This document shows, piece by piece, positions 43,423-64,000 of a DNA stretch of 64,000 nucleotides. Every line of letters begins with the position of its first letter. Position 1 is the first letter of the stretch. A program made the translations under genes and the position numbers. The notes under the pieces are model-generated. The model did not search any database, was not told where the DNA came from, and saw nothing but the letters and a program-made list of their open reading frames with translations. The DNA comes from Acidimicrobiales bacterium (GTDB lineage Bacteria > Actinomycetota > Acidimicrobiia > Acidimicrobiales > Bin134): the NCBI GenBank assembly GCA_965115985.1, contig OZ220474.1, forward strand, positions 2,974,707-3,038,706, in the 5' to 3' direction.

Positions 43423-43863
43423 TCAGCAGTCGGCGCAGTGGCCGTGGAGGTCAAGGCTGTGGTGGGCGGGGGTGAACCCGGTGCGCTCGGCGATGTCGTC
43501 CAGGCTCCGGTGAACGAGATTCTCAAGATCGTTCTCGAGATGGATGTCCTCGATGGTGCCGCAGCCGATGCAGATCATGTGATGATGGTGCCCCAGCAGG
43601 GGCTCGGCCAGTTCAAAGTGGACCCGATCCCCCCCGGAGACGATACGACGGACGACCCCGCTGCGAACCAGCAGATCCAGATTGCGGTACACCGAACTCG
43701 GGGCCAAATCCGGGTCGGCCGCCACGATGTCGGGCAGGGTCATCGGCTGGTCGGAACCGTGGATCACCTCGATGAGCTTCCTCCGGCCTTTGGTGTAGCG
43801 ATGATCCTGGCGGGCCAGCTTGGCTCCTACCTGTAGGTGAAGTTCGTTCAAATAGCTTCTCAT
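43423..43863 (-). CDS. zur: Fur-family metalloregulator, probably Zur
   Basis: 146 aa from ATG 43863 (alternative 43896). Winged-helix part: RYTKGRRKLIEVI...MTLPDIV. Metal sites: HHHHMICIGCG...HGHCADC. It is divergent from a znuA-type gene. Confidence 0.8.
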   Translation of the reverse strand: MRSYLNELHLQVGAKLARQDHRYTKGRRKLIEVIHGSDQPMTLPDIVAADPDLAPSSVYRNLDLLVRSGVVRRIVSGGDRVHFELAEPLLGHHHHMICIGCGTIEDIHLENDLENLVHRSLDDIAERTGFTPAHHSLDLHGHCADC

Positions 43864-43924: not shown

Positions 43925-43975
43925 TTGCGTCCATTGTTCGACATTTGTATAATAATGAGAATGATTACTAATATC
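43925..43975. promoter_or_regulatory. AT-rich divergent control region: candidate -35/-10 promoter plus Fur/Zur-box-like dyad overlapping the znuA start
   Basis: This is among the most AT-rich stretches of the window. TTGCGT (43925-43930), then 17 nt, then a perfect TATAAT (43948-43953). The 19-mer aataatgagaatgattact (43951-43969) matches 14/19 positions of the classical Fur box GATAATGATAATCATTATC. An ATG at 43961 lies 7 nt after the -10 box, so the mRNA could be leaderless. Confidence 0.5.
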
Positions 43976-45367
43976 AAAAAGGCGTTGGCCGGTGGCTTTG
44001 CTGCTCTGGCCGTTCTGGCCCTGGTGGCATCGGGTTGCGGTAACGATGACGATGCCGCCGACGGCCAAGTATCGGATGATCGGCCGACGGTGATGGCCAC
44101 CACCTCAATCTGGGCCGATGTGGTGACCAACGTGGCTTGTGACGGGCTGGCCGACGTGGTGACGCTGATTCCCCCGGGCGGGGATCCTCACGCCTTTCAA
44201 CCTTCCTTGCAGGACCGGGGCCGCATGGACGATGCCGTCATGATCGTGGCCAACGGTCTTGACTTGGAGGAGGGTGTGATCGACACCATCGAAGCGGTTG
44301 AGGAGGCCGGCACGCCGGTATTTCACGTAGCCGATCACGTCGAGACCATCGGATTCGCCCCCGGTATGGAGTTGGACCACGACGACGAGGACGATCACGG
44401 CGACGATCACGGCGACGAGGACGATCATGGCGACGAGGACGACCATGGCGAGGAAGATGGTGACCACGGCGAGGAAGAGGCTGACGATCATGGCGACGAG
44501 GACGATCATGGCGACGAAGATGGTGACCACGGCGAGGAAGAGGCTGACGATCATGGCGACGAGGACGATCACGGCGAGGAAGAGGCTGACCACGGCGAGG
44601 AAGAGGCTGACGATCATGGCGACGAGGACGATCACGGCGAGGAAGAGGCTGACGATCATGGCGACGAGGACGATCACGGCGAGGAAGAGGCTGACGATCA
44701 TGGCGACGAGGACGATCACGGCGAGGAAGAGGCTGACGATCATGGCGACGAGGACGATCACGGCGAGGAAGAGGCTGACGATCATGGCGACGAGGACGAT
44801 CACGGCGACGAGGACGACGGCCATGGGCACGACCATGGGGCGGAGGACCCCCATATTTGGTTCGATCCGGTGAAGGTGGCGGGCGCGCTGCCTGCGCTCG
44901 GCGAGGCTCTGGGGTCGGCTGCTGGTCTGGATGCTGATGCACTGGATGCTTGCGTGGCGGCATACCGGGAGGAACTGATGGCCCTCGACGCGGAGGTCGA
45001 GAGAATCCTGGAACCGATTGCCCAGGAGGATCGCCTGATGGTCACCAACCACGATGCCCTGGGATATTTCGCCGACCGCTACGGATTCCGGCTGATCGGG
45101 ACGGTTATCCCCGGCGGCTCATCCATGGGCACGGCCAACCCGGCCAACCTTCAGGAGCTGGTGGAACTGATCGACCAGACCGGAGTGCGGGCCATATTCG
45201 CCGAGTCCACGCACAGTTCCCAGGACGCGGAGGCTCTGGGCCGGGAGGCCGGTGTGCAGGTTGTGGTGCTGGATACCGGGTCGCTGGGTCCCGCGGGCAG
45301 CGATTCGGGCACCTACATAGGCTTCATGCGGGCCAACGCCCATAGGATCGCCATCGGCCTCGGCTGA
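43955..45367 (+). CDS. znuA: Metal (Zn/Mn)-binding lipoprotein of an ABC importer, ZnuA/TroA family, with giant His/Asp/Glu-rich loop
   Basis: Lipoprotein signal MRMITNIKKALAGGFAALAVLALVASGC. Cluster-9 SBP blocks: VMATTSIWADVV, GGDPHAFQPS, DPHIWFDP, VTNHDALGYFADRYGF. Between them lies an acidic/His segment of about 150 residues. Alternative starts are 43961 and 43895. Confidence 0.88.
   Translation: MRMITNIKKALAGGFAALAVLALVASGCGNDDDAADGQVSDDRPTVMATTSIWADVVTNVACDGLADVVTLIPPGGDPHAFQPSLQDRGRMDDAVMIVANGLDLEEGVIDTIEAVEEAGTPVFHVADHVETIGFAPGMELDHDDEDDHGDDHGDEDDHGDEDDHGEEDGDHGEEEADDHGDEDDHGDEDGDHGEEEADDHGDEDDHGEEEADHGEEEADDHGDEDDHGEEEADDHGDEDDHGEEEADDHGDEDDHGEEEADDHGDEDDHGEEEADDHGDEDDHGDEDDGHGHDHGAEDPHIWFDPVKVAGALPALGEALGSAAGLDADALDACVAAYREELMALDAEVERILEPIAQEDRLMVTNHDALGYFADRYGFRLIGTVIPGGSSMGTANPANLQELVELIDQTGVRAIFAESTHSSQDAEALGREAGVQVVVLDTGSLGPAGSDSGTYIGFMRANAHRIAIGLG
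44383..44835 (+). repeat. In-frame repeat region encoding the (DHGDEDDHGEEEAD)n loop; five perfect 42-bp units
   Basis: gaggaagaggctgacgatcatggcgacgaggacgatcacggc occurs at 44597, 44639, 44681, 44723 and 44765. More divergent copies lie upstream from about 44383. Confidence 0.93.
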
Positions 45368-45402: not shown

Positions 45403-46266
45403 ATGGAGTTCTTGACCAACCCGGTCGAGTGGTGGGTCGAGCCCTTCATCGACAACATCTTCATGCGCAATGCCCTGTGGTCGGGACTGCTGGCCGTTTT
45501 GACCACCTCGACGGTCGGAACCTGGGTGGTGCTCCGAGGGATGAGCTTCTTGGGCGAAGCTCTGGCTCACGGGGTGCTGCCCGGCCTGGCCATCGCTTTC
45601 ATCATCGGGGGTGATACCACCATTGGTGCGTTGGTGGCCGCCCTGGCCATGGTGGGCGGCATCAATATCGTTCGTAGTCACTCGCCGCTGCCCGACGACA
45701 GCACCATCGGGTTGCTCTATGTGGGATTCCTGGCCACGGCGGTGGTGATCATGTCCACCAGTTCGGGGGCGTACTCCGGTGAGCTCACCCGGTTCCTGTT
45801 CGGTTCGATCACCGGGGTGACGGACAGTGATCTTGTCCGCCAGCTCGTCATTGCCGGGATCGTGATGGTCGGGGTGGTGGTGCTGCACCGGGCGTTTCTG
45901 GTCTTGACCTTCGACATGGTCCAGGCTCGCCTCTTCGGATTCCGCCCCCAGTTGACCCACGCCGCTCTGCTGGCGCTTCTGGCCATCTCGATCGTGGCGT
46001 CGTTCCAAGCCGTCGGAAATCTGCTGGTGTTCGCGTTCTTGGTGGCCCCTCCGTCGGCCGCGGCCATGCTGGTGCGCCGGATCCCGGCAATCATGGTCGT
46101 CGCAGTTGGTCTCGGTGTGGTCTCGGTGGTGGTCGGTCTGCTCATCAGCTACCACCACGACACCGCGGCCGGTGCCACCATGGCGCTGGGGGCGGTGGTG
46201 CTGTTCCTGGTCGCTATTTTGATCCGGGCCTGCTTGGGGTCCTACAACGTCAGGTTGGCCACCTAG
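45403..46266 (+). CDS. znuB: ABC-3 family metal importer permease
   Basis: 287 aa with 8-9 TM segments: FMRNALWSGLLAVLTTSTVGTWVVLRGMSFLGEALAHGVLPG. Confidence 0.9.
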   Translation: MEFLTNPVEWWVEPFIDNIFMRNALWSGLLAVLTTSTVGTWVVLRGMSFLGEALAHGVLPGLAIAFIIGGDTTIGALVAALAMVGGINIVRSHSPLPDDSTIGLLYVGFLATAVVIMSTSSGAYSGELTRFLFGSITGVTDSDLVRQLVIAGIVMVGVVVLHRAFLVLTFDMVQARLFGFRPQLTHAALLALLAISIVASFQAVGNLLVFAFLVAPPSAAAMLVRRIPAIMVVAVGLGVVSVVVGLLISYHHDTAAGATMALGAVVLFLVAILIRACLGSYNVRLAT

Positions 46267-46370
46267 CTCGGGGGTTCGTCACCTGATCAGGGGGATTGGC
46301 CACCTAGTTCGGGGGTTCGTCACCTGATCAGGGGGATTGGCCACCTAGTTCGGGGGTTCGTCACCTGGTT
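46257..46370. repeat. 41-bp x2.7 tandem repeat beginning with the znuB stop codon
   Basis: ggccacctag occurs at 46257 (TAG 46264-46266), 46298 and 46339. Confidence 0.9.
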
Positions 46371-46407
46371 GAGGAACTGGGTGCCGGGCCGTCCAGGGCG
46401 GGGCCCA

Positions 46408-46902
46408 TCACCGGGCAGAGCCCATCGCCAGGGTGGCGGTCCCGGCCAGCACCGGGTGGGTGCCGTCACGAGCCAGCCAGACGTCGCACTCCACCGTGCC
46501 GTCGTCGCCCACCGAGGTGACCGAGCCACCGGCCTCCAGGCGATCACCGGCGAACACGTTGTCCAAGAAACGCACCCGTATCCGCCGGATGTGCTCGGTA
46601 CCACCGGCCCAGTCGGCCAGCATGTTCATCACGTAGGCCATGTTGTTGGGTCCCTGGTTCACGGGTTGATCCCCCATGCCCAGTTCCCGCACCGCCTCGA
46701 CGTCCCAGTGGATGGGGTTGGGGTCGCCGAGCAGGGCGGCCATGGTCTTCATTTTCTCGGCGTCCACCGACTCGATCACCATCCGGGGCAGATCGTCGCC
46801 CACCGACGGTGTCGGCCGCTTCGACGCACCGGGCGCAGGCGACCCGGACGGGGCCGGCCGGGACGGATCCTCGCCCACCGACGGTGTTGATACTGCGCTC
46901 AT
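46408..46902 (-). CDS. MaoC-like (R)-hydratase hotdog-fold protein
   Basis: From ATG 46902 the sequence reads GDPNPIHWDVEAVRELGMGDQPVNQGPNNMAYVMNML (hydratase 2 motif region). The Pro/Ser-rich N-terminus has a 75-bp-spaced direct repeat (46796 and 46871). Confidence 0.82.
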   Translation of the reverse strand: MSAVSTPSVGEDPSRPAPSGSPAPGASKRPTPSVGDDLPRMVIESVDAEKMKTMAALLGDPNPIHWDVEAVRELGMGDQPVNQGPNNMAYVMNMLADWAGGTEHIRRIRVRFLDNVFAGDRLEAGGSVTSVGDDGTVECDVWLARDGTHPVLAGTATLAMGSAR

Positions 46903-62228: not shown

Positions 62229-62370
62229 CCCCGTAGCTTCGCGCACCCGAGCGGGGCGATGCCCGACCCGCAGGTGTACCAGTGGGAAACTGCCACTGGA
62301 TGTTCATGCACCGCCCGCCCCCATCGTTTTCGACCAGCCGGTCGGTTCCGGCCCAGTGGGAAATGCCGTT

Positions 62371-63534
62371 CTAGTGGGAGTGGGAGAAGAACTGGAGGAT
62401 CTTGGACTTGTGACGGATTTCCTTCTCGGTGGCCAGGAGATGATCCACATGGTGGTTCTCGTTGCCGCAGTCGTCCACCGAGTGCTCGAGCTGAATGGTG
62501 GAGTGCTGGATTCCGTACCGACTGGCGATCGAGCGAATCCGTTTTAGCTGCGAGTCGGTTCCGCCCTCGTACTCGTAGTCCGGGTCGGCCAGAACGTGGG
62601 CGGTCATCGACAGATACCCGGAGGTGATGGTTCGGACATGTACGTCGTGGACGATGGTTACGCCCTCCACGTCTTCGATTTCGGCGCAGAGCTTGAACAC
62701 GTCCACGTGCTCGGGAGTTCCGTCGATCAGCACGTGGAACACCTCGGTCACCAGATTCCAGGAACTCATGAGGATCAGCAAGCCAATGACCATACTGAGG
62801 ATCGGGTCAACGACGTCCCAGCCCAGGCTGAGCACCACGACCCCGGAAACCACCACGGCCACCGACCCCAGCAGGTCGGCCAATACATGCTGGAAGGCAC
62901 CCTCCACGTTCAGACTGTGCTGGGACTGCCGATGGAGAATCCAGGCCACCAGGACATTGATCAACAGACCGGCGGCACCGACGATGAGCATGAGCGCGCC
63001 CTCGACTTCGGCCTCGTCGCCGATTCGGTGGAAGGCCTCGTAGAAGATCCAGGCCACGATCACCCACAGGGACAAAACGTTGAACAACGCGGCCAGTATC
63101 TCGGTTCGATAGAAGCCGAAGGTCCGGTGGGTCGAGGGCGGCCGGTCGGCGGCCCACATGGCGAACAGCGCCAGCCCGATGGCCGCGCTGTCGGTGAGCA
63201 TGTGCCCGGCATCGGCGATAAGCGCCAAGCTGCCCGAGGCAATACCGCCGATCACCTCGATCACCATGAAGGTGGTGGTCAAGGTAACCGCCAGAATCAG
63301 ACTGCGGCGGCTGGCCTCCCGCAGGTCGTGATGGTGGTGCCCGTGATCGTGGTCATGGTGGTGGTCGTGCCCATGATCGTGGTCATGACTGTGGTCGTGA
63401 CCATGGTGGTGATCGTGCTCATGACTGTGGTCATGCCCGTGATTGTGACCATGGCCACCACCATGATCTTCCTCGTGACCATGGTGGTGATCGTGCCCAT
63501 GCTCATGGTCGTGACCACGATCAGATTTTGCCAC
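62371..63534 (-). CDS. Cation diffusion facilitator (CzcD/ZitB-type) exporter with 65-residue His-rich N-terminus
   Basis: CDF TM core (GSLALIADAGHMLTDSAAIG, HVLADLLGS) and a C-terminal cytosolic domain. The N-terminus reads GHDHEHGHDHHHGH...HDHDHGHHHH. The GTG start shares one base with the upstream TAG (TAGTG). Confidence 0.92.
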   Translation of the reverse strand: MAKSDRGHDHEHGHDHHHGHEEDHGGGHGHNHGHDHSHEHDHHHGHDHSHDHDHGHDHHHDHDHGHHHHDLREASRRSLILAVTLTTTFMVIEVIGGIASGSLALIADAGHMLTDSAAIGLALFAMWAADRPPSTHRTFGFYRTEILAALFNVLSLWVIVAWIFYEAFHRIGDEAEVEGALMLIVGAAGLLINVLVAWILHRQSQHSLNVEGAFQHVLADLLGSVAVVVSGVVVLSLGWDVVDPILSMVIGLLILMSSWNLVTEVFHVLIDGTPEHVDVFKLCAEIEDVEGVTIVHDVHVRTITSGYLSMTAHVLADPDYEYEGGTDSQLKRIRSIASRYGIQHSTIQLEHSVDDCGNENHHVDHLLATEKEIRHKSKILQFFSHSH

Positions 63535-63761
63535 TAGGCCGCTTTACAGCACTCGTCGGTGTGGACGTGTACTGGGATGTTGCAGTGGTCCTCGTGGTCG
63601 GCATGGGTGTGCTCACCGGCATCGCAGTGAGCAGAGTGATCGTGACTGTCGTCACAGTGATCGGCGTGGTTGTGCTCCACCTGATCGCAGTGATCCTCGT
63701 GGTCGGCGTGGGTGTGCTCCGGGTGGTCGTAGCACGAATCGGAGTGGACATGATCTGACAT
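63534..63761 (-). CDS. 75-aa His/Cys/Asp-rich putative metal-binding protein, translationally coupled to the CDF gene
   Basis: The ATG at 63761 is preceded by GAAAGG 7 nt upstream. The product MSDHVHSDSCYDHPEHTHADHEDHCDQVEHNHADHCDDSHDHSAHCDAGEHTHADHEDHCNIPVHVHTDECCKAA has 19 His, 7 Cys and 14 Asp (counted), with an internal repeat EHTHADHEDHC x2. Confidence 0.7.
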   Translation of the reverse strand: MSDHVHSDSCYDHPEHTHADHEDHCDQVEHNHADHCDDSHDHSAHCDAGEHTHADHEDHCNIPVHVHTDECCKAA

Positions 63762-63785
63762 GATCTGGCCTTTCTGATGGTGGCT

Positions 63786-63842
63786 GGCACCCACTTGGTG
63801 CCCGGTATCGCAAACGATAATCACCACTGTCCCCCAAGTCAA
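63786..63842 (-). promoter_or_regulatory. Candidate promoter and two operator-like dyads upstream of the His/Cys-rich gene
   Basis: On the minus strand: TTGACT (63842-63837), then 17 nt, then TATCGT (63819-63814). The dyads are TATCG-caaa-CGATA (63806-63819) and GGCACC-cactt-GGTGCC (63786-63802). Confidence 0.35.
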
Positions 63843-63849
63843 TAGCCTT

Positions 63850-63948
63850 GAGTCAACGGCTTTGGAGCTTGGGTTTTTCGCTACCGCAATCATCCACGGC
63901 GCTGTCAACGGTCTTCGAGTCAACGGCTTTGGAGCTTGGGTTTTTCGC
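63850..63948. repeat. 32-bp core repeated at 67-bp spacing upstream of the metal-export operon
   Basis: gagtcaacggctttggagcttgggtttttcgc occurs at 63850-63881 and 63917-63948. Confidence 0.9.
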
Positions 63949-64000
63949 CTCTTCAGCCGTTGGCGGCGGCCGTACCGGCGGAATGGGCGGCGACGAGGAT

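Follow-up and report, generated by a model that had tools for sequence, protein, structure and literature searches.

The window analyzed here, a 64,000-nucleotide stretch of contig OZ220474.1 from an Acidimicrobiales bacterium, encodes close to one of its ends a 75-residue His-, Cys- and Asp-rich mini-protein, whose gene shares the last base of its stop codon with the start codon of a gene for a cation diffusion facilitator (CDF) exporter. The mini-protein represents a previously undescribed small-protein family, new both as a family and in its arrangement with a CDF, and its putative function would place it within the known kind of small His/Cys metal-binding proteins. Comparative sequence analysis showed that the gene is real and conserved, that its link to the CDF gene is conserved as well, including the stop/start overlap, that the pump is of the CDF type and that the neighborhood is one of zinc genes. 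The reading that we favor, with somewhat more confidence than doubt, is that the mini-protein would act as a Zn(II) buffer with several binding sites on a disordered chain, co-produced with an exporter of the ZnT/ZitB type and probably feeding the His-rich tail of this pump. The features of the locus are as follows:

63534-63761, minus strand: mini-protein gene, an ATG-to-TAG open reading frame (ORF) of 75 codons; product MSDHVHSDSCYDHPEHTHADHEDHCDQVEHNHADHCDDSHDHSAHCDAGEHTHADHEDHCNIPVHVHTDECCKAA
63769-63774, minus strand: Shine-Dalgarno (SD)-like GAAAGG, 7 nt 5' of the mini-gene ATG
63532-63536, minus strand: TAGTG junction, made of the mini-gene TAG (63536-63534) and the CDF GTG (63534-63532), with one base (G) in common
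62371-63534, minus strand: CDF exporter gene, 387 aa, ZitB/CzcD/ZnT type (PF01545, TIGR01297, ZnT8 alignment)
63325-63516, minus strand: cytoplasmic tract near the CDF N-terminus (residues 7-70), Cys-free and His/Asp/Gly-rich

Re-translation of the ORF confirmed the composition reported in the initial annotation, namely 19 His, 7 Cys and 14 Asp, to which 6 Glu, a single Lys as the sole basic residue and 7 hydrophobic residues, dispersed without clustering, have to be added. The duplicated EHTHADHEDHC block (residues 15-25 and 50-60) and the ECC located three residues from the C-terminal end, also reported there, were both read in the protein. It contains no adjacent His pairs, every His being isolated, and each Cys closes one short His-rich unit: an N-cap (M..HVH.D.C) is followed by a 15-aa first unit (YDHPEHTHADHEDHC), by units of 11, 10 and 14 aa, and by a C-cap (IPVHVHTDECC-KAA), with 26 His/Cys ligands in the whole protein. 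The SD sequence, previously described as good, is indeed present but only of moderate strength. Relatives carry stronger versions with the spacing seen in the window (AAGGAG, GAGGAG or GGGAG), and an SD lies 6-11 nt ahead of the mini-gene ATG in each lineage for which upstream sequence was read.

Since all six frames of the mini-gene stretch can be read without a stop, openness alone is no proof of a gene, and the decisive information comes from relatives, which are labelled here L001-L096 (loci) and P0004-P0019 (proteins). The use of the CDF as a query against species-representative genomes provided the first of them, while a metagenome scan and HMMER searches provided L081, L082, L086-L088, L089/90, L095 and L096. 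The closest CDF relative in the scan of species-representative genomes, L001 (78% identity), belongs to a metagenome-assembled genome (MAG) of the 'Sva0996 marine group' (accession MPNQ), which we take to be one of the bins of Slaby et al. A further CDF clade, at 48-63% identity, comprises MAGs from Dehalococcoidia/SAR202, Acidimicrobiia and elsewhere, and sponge-type bin names are frequent among them. The work of Slaby et al. concerned the binning of the Aplysina aerophoba sponge microbiome, and Sva0996 is mentioned in it (PMC5649159). At the place equivalent to that of the mini-gene, L001 contains a 110-aa ORF with the N-terminus, the C-terminus and the TAGTG junction of the window, and a lower-GC Acidimicrobiaceae MAG (L008) contains a 53-aa version. 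Over the 31 codons that can be unambiguously aligned between the window and L008, 17 codon changes are synonymous and 7 non-synonymous, third codon positions hold 23 of the 31 base differences, and the protein identity is 81% at 67% DNA identity, compared with 20-25% in the other sense frames. The test set beforehand, on which the gene could be refuted, was whether relatives conserve the ORF or only DNA rich in His codons, and it is the ORF that has been kept, third-position changes being dominant in this comparison. By this pattern of codon changes, the mini-ORF is a protein-coding gene under purifying selection.

Members of the family were found in about 11 lineages, which are marine Acidimicrobiia and for the most part associated with sponges, and its anatomy was drawn from nine full-length members. 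In these, the N-cap, M(A/S)(D)H-x-H-(T/S)-(D/E)-x-C, and the C-cap, H-x-H-T-(D/E)-(E/D)-C-C followed by three or four residues, are fixed, and the 15-aa first unit reads YDHPEH-x-HADH-x-DHC. The 14-aa unit, D-x-x-E-H-x-H-A-D-H-x-D-H-C, has H5, H7, A8, D9, H10, H13 and C14 invariant in 23 out of 23 units, and a shorter pair of units (11 + 10 aa) is found in the window, L081, L082, L087, L088 and L090. Between zero and six units of 10-15 aa separate the caps, with total lengths of 39 (no middle units), 53, 74-76, 102 and 110 aa, and no member has more than one basic residue (0-1). The invariant H-x-H-x-D-H equals the zinc-ligand signature of metallo-beta-lactamase-fold enzymes, which we treat as a lead and not as a test.

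The nature of the pump was deduced from profile and structure comparisons. The CDF matched PF01545 with E = 4.9e-44 (150.9 bits; cutoff 26.6) and TIGR01297 with 277.5 bits (cutoff 82.35). Its best-scoring NCBIfam equivalog was that of ZitB (NF002923), with 259.4 bits, under the cutoff of 408, and the DmeF Co/Ni model (NF033827) gave 103.6 bits, under its cutoff of 250. By these scores, the pump is ZitB-like and no ZitB orthologue. The closest PDB match was human ZnT8 (6xpe, E = 7.7e-41), in whose alignment the HD-HD site, formed by H..D in transmembrane helix (TM) 2 and H..D in TM5, corresponds to DAGHMLTD/DAAHLLID and FQHVLAD/FVHALGD. The initial annotation had described a His-tailed CDF with a tract rich in H, D, G and E. 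The tract was confirmed, with the adjustment that the tail is N-terminal: residues 1-70 include 34 His, 13 Asp, 11 Gly and 4 Glu, and the C-terminus merely ends in FFSHSH. In relatives, the His-rich extension is in frame and variable in length. Because the CDF ORF contains no in-frame ATG, GTG or TTG upstream of TM1 apart from that of the junction, the GTG of TAGTG is the sole workable start, and the His tract is part of the pump.

The one-base overlap between TAG and GTG, already pointed out in the initial annotation, was verified in the sequence. There is no SD ahead of the CDF GTG in the window sequence, so that translation of the CDF probably depends on termination-reinitiation at TAGTG. 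The possibility of a -1 frameshift joining the mini-protein to the CDF was discarded, as the slippery heptamer is absent at GCGGCCTAGTG. The search for mini-ORFs ahead of CDF genes in relatives, which that annotation had proposed, found the mini-gene directly 5' of an orthologous CDF gene in about 11 lineages (window, L001/L083-85, L086, L008, L081, L082, L087, L088, L089/90, L095 and L096). The TAGTG overlap is conserved: it was read in the window, L001 (identical in L083-85), L086, L081, L082, L087, L088 and L090, counted as seven lineages.

A second line of evidence for the association came from synteny. L086 and L001 are colinear with the window over 40.9-51.1 kb, and in both the mini-CDF pair is flanked by znuB on one side and a MaoC-like gene on the other. 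In the window, in which these two genes are adjacent and the mini-CDF pair is 16 kb off, the exact position that the pair has in L086/L001 is represented by the following feature:

46267-46422, no strand assigned: 'empty site' of 156 nt between znuB and the MaoC-like gene, identified by synteny

Most of this site is filled by a tandem repeat of about 41 nt in about 2.5 copies, and the two locations of the cassette (window and L086) have no flank similarity. The different places of the mini-CDF pair in L086/L001 and in the window mark it as a two-gene unit, and by this synteny the mini-gene and the CDF gene move as a two-gene cassette. In L095 (6001-7137 of a 3.59-Mb contig), frameshifts break both genes: that of the mini-gene comes after codon 27, and the CDF coding sequence is divided between two frames. 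The two genes thus appear to decay together in this lineage, and records of the mini product with the frameshift exist for 15 contigs. On the 3' side of the CDF stop codon, window positions 62247-62370 contain TTTCCCACTGG twice and a perfect 7-bp inverted repeat, CCAGTGG-n7-CCACTGG, with no T-run, and these repeats may represent a terminator or a cassette boundary.

The genomic surroundings link the cassette to zinc. The relevant features of the window are these:

43423-43863, minus strand: Fur-family regulator gene, probably Zur (PF01475, E = 1.9e-18; tblastn, 75% identity to the L086 fur), 18 kb from the mini-CDF pair
43955-45367, plus strand: znuA (PF01297, E = 7.9e-52)
45403-46266, plus strand: znuB (PF00950, E = 4.7e-58)
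43954-43964, plus strand: Fur-type box AATGAGAATGA within TATAATAATGAGAATGATTAC, at the znuA start; only exact copy in the window

The statement in the initial annotation that no regulator gene is visible was therefore corrected, given that the Fur-family gene stands in the window beside znuA and znuB; nothing found in the analysis points to control by ArsR/SmtB or MerR regulators. Orthologues of the window fur gene lie directly upstream of the mini-CDF pair in five other lineages (L081, L082, L087, L088 and L090), in the same direction as the mini-gene, with 22 nt from the fur stop to the mini ATG in L090. Genes for ZnuA/ZnuB are found beside the pair in L086, L088, L090 and L096, and a cobW/COG0523 gene is near it in L089/90. 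The mini-CDF module belongs to a zinc-homeostasis gene set made of a Zur-like Fur, ZnuAB and, in one lineage, COG0523. As for regulation, a TGAGAAT box is common to the mini promoter and the fur/znuA promoter in L081 and L090; in the former, the full 12-mer TATAATGAGAAT is present in both promoters, and the latter contains the variant pair TACAATGAGAAT and TATACTGAGAAT. The actinobacterial Zur box consensus, TGAAAATSATTTTCA, had no matches in the window at up to three mismatches. Zur is a candidate regulator of the mini-CDF pair.

Some observations on these zinc genes deserve mention in their own right. The window ZnuA has an Asp/Glu/His repeat loop of about 190 aa, of the DDHGDEDDHGEEEA type, which greatly exceeds the His/acidic loop that zinc-specific ZnuA proteins usually have, and the L088 homologue is expanded alike; metal-ligand low-complexity tracts are in fact enlarged across the zinc genes of the window (ZnuA loop, CDF tail and mini-protein). 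In TATAATAATGAGAATGATTAC (43940-43975), a -10-like hexamer is found 3 nt ahead of the znuA ATG, a spacing suggestive of a znuA mRNA without a leader, and the start codon is overlapped by the Fur-type box. In L081 (560-1297), L087, L088 (5428-6303) and P0019, the fur ORF reads in frame, with no stop, into the mini-ORF, predicting a Fur protein with a His/Cys tail. Such a fusion was rejected as a conserved feature, since in relatives that share a 90%-identity cluster with these proteins the linker is interrupted, by a stop in P0004 and P0005 and by a frameshift in P0007. About 35 stop-free codons are expected some 40% of the time at the given GC content, according to our own estimate, and in these four cases the fusion is probably incidental.

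Integrating these data, the following sequence of events can be proposed. Both proteins would be produced from one mRNA, with ribosomes that end at the TAG restarting on the overlapping GTG. The mini-protein, cytosolic and extremely acidic, has almost no hydrophobic or basic residues, and the chain is probably disordered without metal. The potential ligands of each short unit are four His, a single Cys and two to three carboxylates, and the 26 His/Cys ligands of the window copy would suffice for some five to seven sites of the Zn(II) type. Acting as a fast buffer, the protein would capture excess labile cytosolic zinc, and possibly Cd, Co or Ni as well, and the metal would then probably be passed to the His-rich N-terminal tail and the HD-HD site of the pump. 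Metal binding, the identity of the metal, its transfer to the pump and the coupling by reinitiation are all conditional elements of this proposal, as is any 'chaperone' role for the mini-protein.

Other His/Cys-rich mini-proteins were found at the same CDF clade. Repeats of the HECDxHEHH type (64-144 aa) are encoded at ten Dehalococcoidia/SAR202 loci, repeats of the HCHxH type at two loci, and an Hpn-like CCEE-HHHHHH type (type D) at one Acidimicrobiia locus, L014. The loci with these further unannotated families within about 1 kb of the CDF are L002, L004, L006, L009, L010, L013-L019 and L023, from Dehalococcoidia/SAR202 and Acidimicrobiia MAGs. By one composition criterion, a small His/Cys/acidic ORF is present at 14 of the 26 marine-clade loci, versus 1 of the 54 CDF loci of soil actinomycetes. 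Judging from the codon changes (36 synonymous and 13 non-synonymous for the HECD type; 8 and 2 for the HCH type), these two types are under purifying selection, their substitutions being biased to third positions. No accepted match to Pfam, NCBIfam, PHROGs or PDB was obtained for these other types, the weak match of type D to Galaxin_repeat being under its cutoff. Homology of the mini-protein family (type A) with the other families, evaluated in the comparison with type C, was unsupported after composition correction (E = 13), and the same was true of homology with the CDF N-terminal tail (E = 12). This distribution suggests that soluble proteins made of metal-ligand repeats were recruited to a single pump clade several times independently. 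In addition, a 116-aa ORF is found 3' of a Nitrospirales CDF (L012, 6140-6490), with a duplicated HxGHTDYLxxGHLHHxH, 30 His and no Pfam or NCBIfam match.

In agreement with the initial annotation, which considered the mini-protein unlike known metallothioneins, searches of Pfam and NCBIfam (E <= 1), PHROGs and PDB (E <= 10) returned no match. The phmmer comparison with 1.84 billion cluster representatives yielded three matches, all of them members of the mini-protein family, and a profile search of 5.8 billion sequences yielded six. A word-indexed homologue search with the single mini-protein as query found nothing, exact look-ups of both window proteins found neither on record, and no description of such a pump partner or of such repeats was found in the literature. 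Most of the relatives' mini-proteins are missing as called genes from a 15-billion-protein collection. The public gene calls at L089/L090 (6793-7056) and L096 (5090-5272) consist of an antisense ORF over the His-codon tract, with the CDF start placed about 90 codons late, a pattern suggestive of a systematic artefact in the annotation of DNA with His repeats. The mini-genes, mostly missing or mis-framed in annotations, thus constitute a blind spot, and with almost no Lys or Arg their products would be invisible to tryptic proteomics.

Several points weigh against a buffer that feeds the pump. A sink and a pump that are merely co-expressed would explain the layout equally well, physical transfer being something that we infer. 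The identity of the metal is deduced from the CDF subtype and the neighboring genes, and Hpn, of similar composition, serves nickel. The link to the pump is not absolute, because L008 has a 55-nt gap in place of the overlap, and two copies lack a CDF nearby, namely a 39-aa orphan beside lexA and a degenerate piece of the N-terminal part, close to what is left of a transposase. In the window, the mini promoter has only a two-mismatch match to the box (63813-63823), which is at chance level (8 found vs 8.7 expected). In L081 and L090, the common box overlaps the -10 of the mini promoter, which suggests repression by Zn-Zur, and under classical Zur repression the module would be expressed at low zinc, the opposite of what is expected for detoxification. 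It can be added that Zur activates the exporter gene zitB in Streptomyces coelicolor (PMC11077047) and the metallothionein gene bmtA in Synechococcus WH8102, where the box overlaps both the -10 and the -35 (PMC9337993). Finally, AlphaFold modeling of the single mini-protein sequence gave no fold (pLDDT 45.7), a result compatible with a metal-free disordered chain that constitutes weak evidence, a single-sequence model being uninformative.

An alternative reading is that of a zinc store, in which the mini-protein would be a metallothionein-like reservoir that banks zinc, perhaps made while Zur is inactive at low zinc, and that would release it to apo-enzymes, the CDF serving as an overflow valve with no hand-off. 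We regard this as doubtful, although the Zur-type box overlaps the mini -10 in L081 and L090 exactly as it does at the fur/znuA promoter, the neighbors of the mini-gene include uptake genes and COG0523, some copies are orphans with no CDF, and the Zur-controlled BmtA has been proposed to bank zinc in marine Synechococcus (PMC9337993). However, seven lineages have kept the stop/start overlap, and the two genes are moved and lost together, which makes an independent action of the two proteins hard to explain. In addition, a single CDF clade has attracted four mini-protein families that are unrelated to one another. The metal might also be a different one. CDFs of the ZitB/CzcD/ZnT type often carry Co and Cd too, and this general knowledge, the very Hpn-like CCEE-HHHHHH repeats of type D (L014) and the resemblance of the His-dominated, Cys-containing acidic composition to that of Hpn and Hpn-2 (PMC4671568) would fit an Hpn-like binder of Ni(II) or Co(II) next to a CDF that exports Ni or Co instead of Zn. 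This is unlikely in view of the DmeF score (104 bits vs 259 for ZitB), the absence in the Rfam scan of a NiCo (czcD) riboswitch, the lack of poly-His runs in the mini-protein, and the neighbors, which are a ZnuA with an acidic/His loop, ZnuB, a Fur-family gene and COG0523, with none of urease, hydrogenase or nik genes seen nearby.

It could also be asked whether the product matters at all. CDF initiation appears tied to termination at TAGTG, with a GTG devoid of SD, and Actinobacteria use amino-acid-rich short ORFs as attenuators, such as polycysteine upstream ORFs (bioRxiv 10.1101/834739), so that translation of a His/Cys-codon-rich leader, and not its product, might set CDF translation. We consider this very unlikely: the product is 39-110 aa long, with His, Cys, Asp, Ala, Tyr and both caps conserved by position, the number of units varies while their sequence is kept, the downstream gene is unrelated to the supply of His or Cys, and L008 retains the protein without the overlap. 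Still harder to credit is a chance open frame in the His-codon-rich, stop-poor DNA 5' of a His-rich CDF. The six open frames would allow it, as would the fact that gene callers often miss the mini-gene or pick other frames and that most of the exact sequences are absent from the 15-billion-protein collection. Against it stand the predominance of third-position changes, a protein identity of 76-86% across a shift in GC content versus 20-65% in other sense frames, an SD at a fixed distance, and the conservation of the start and both caps. Having considered these possibilities, the zinc buffer co-produced with its exporter remains our preferred explanation.

Comparison with known systems places the mini-protein closest to Hpn and SmtA/BmtA in chemistry and to PacL1-CtpC in layout, and it is a member of none of them. 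Poly-His runs and EEGCC repeats are features of Hpn and Hpn-2, and a ligand set of about 9 Cys and 2 His is that of SmtA/BmtA. Like Hpn and Hpn-2, the small His-rich nickel-binding proteins of gastric Helicobacter (PMC4671568), the mini-protein is small and cytosolic, His-dominated with few Cys and many acidic residues, repeat-like, and presumably a metal sink or donor. However, it has no sequence relation to them in the phmmer search over 1.84 billion representatives or in PDB, it lacks poly-His runs and EEGCC repeats, with isolated His and units ending in HC instead, and its context is of the zinc type and not of the nickel type. To our knowledge, hpn is not encoded next to an exporter, in contrast to the coupling of the mini-gene to the CDF. 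With SmtA/BmtA (PF02069) it would share a metal-sequestering role, and it shares the small size, the mixed Cys/His ligands and the tie to a Zur/ZnuABC circuit, as in the case of bmtA in Synechococcus WH8102 (PMC9337993). It differs in giving no profile match, in having about three times as many His as Cys (19 vs 7), the reverse of SmtA, and in being built from a variable number of repeats, without a predicted fixed fold, and encoded with an exporter.

In layout, the closest functional analogy for a pump partner is found in Mycobacterium tuberculosis, where PacL1 is a small, chaperone-like metal-binding partner required by the zinc-resistance P-type ATPase CtpC (PMC9374683), since there too the gene of a small protein lies immediately 5' of that of an exporter. 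In PacL1, however, a transmembrane helix and Gln/Ala repeats are combined with one metal motif at the C-terminus, whereas the mini-protein would be fully soluble, with ligand repeats throughout, and its partner is a CDF and not a P1B-ATPase; its seven hydrophobic residues are unclustered and there is no Pfam match, so that it does not belong to the PacL type. The pump itself shares with ZitB/CzcD and with human ZnT8/ZnT3 the CDF fold, the HD-HD site and the cytoplasmic C-terminal domain, and His-rich cytoplasmic segments are common in the family, but it falls below the ZitB cutoff (259 vs 408) and has an unusually long N-terminal His stretch and a dedicated upstream mini-protein. Finally, in Streptomyces coelicolor an actinobacterial Fur-family zinc sensor, Zur, is likewise tied to znuA and to a CDF exporter gene, zitB (PMC11077047), while here the link consists of gene adjacency and, in some lineages only, of a common box.

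The DNA upstream of the mini-gene contains the following additional elements:

63814-63842, minus strand: promoter-like TTGACT-17-TATCGT
63806-63819, minus strand: dyad TATCG-n4-CGATA, overlapping the -10 box
63786-63802, minus strand: dyad GGCACC-n5-GGTGCC
63850-63881 and 63917-63948, no strand assigned: two perfect 32-nt direct repeats (0 expected by chance), with a given spacing of 67 nt
within 63837-63948, no strand assigned: four 14-nt TTGAC-containing iterons, CAARGNCRTTGACT, 5' of the mini-gene promoter (0 expected by chance)

The promoter and the two dyads had been proposed in the initial annotation and all three are present in the sequence, but the promoter-like motif is as frequent as in shuffles (1 found vs 0.6 expected), and neither dyad is kept in the closest lineage (L001/L086), so that they lack comparative support. 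With an unremarkable hairpin stability in this region (z = -0.66), the dyads were rejected as operators. The 32-nt repeats and the iterons occur nowhere else in the window and are not conserved in L001/L086; they are possibly an operator array or an insertion scar. A gene that enters the window from beyond position 64000 ends at about 63955. The Rfam scan upstream of the CDF, besides lacking the riboswitch mentioned above, detected no other element, and only sub-threshold, spurious miRNA-type matches appeared inside the His-codon repeats.

We know of no cytosolic metallochaperone or dedicated buffer for any CDF/ZnT transporter. A pump partner of 39-110 aa with a variable number of units, encoded in a natural, coupled two-gene cassette, would provide a simple system in which to follow the delivery of zinc from a buffered cytosol to CDF pumps and to distinguish buffering from hand-off. 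As a broader and tentative proposal, possible rather than probable, CDF exporters can have dedicated soluble metal-delivery partners, and at least four unrelated hyper-His/Cys acidic families (type A, HECDxHEHH, HCHxH and CCEE-H6) might have been recruited to one horizontally shared CDF clade in sponge and coral bacteria of at least two phyla, forming a symbiosis-specific, largely unannotated metal module whose capacity would be tuned by the gain and loss of units. The gathering of unrelated families at one CDF clade in sponge symbionts points to metal stress or metal provisioning as a selective force in this symbiosis.

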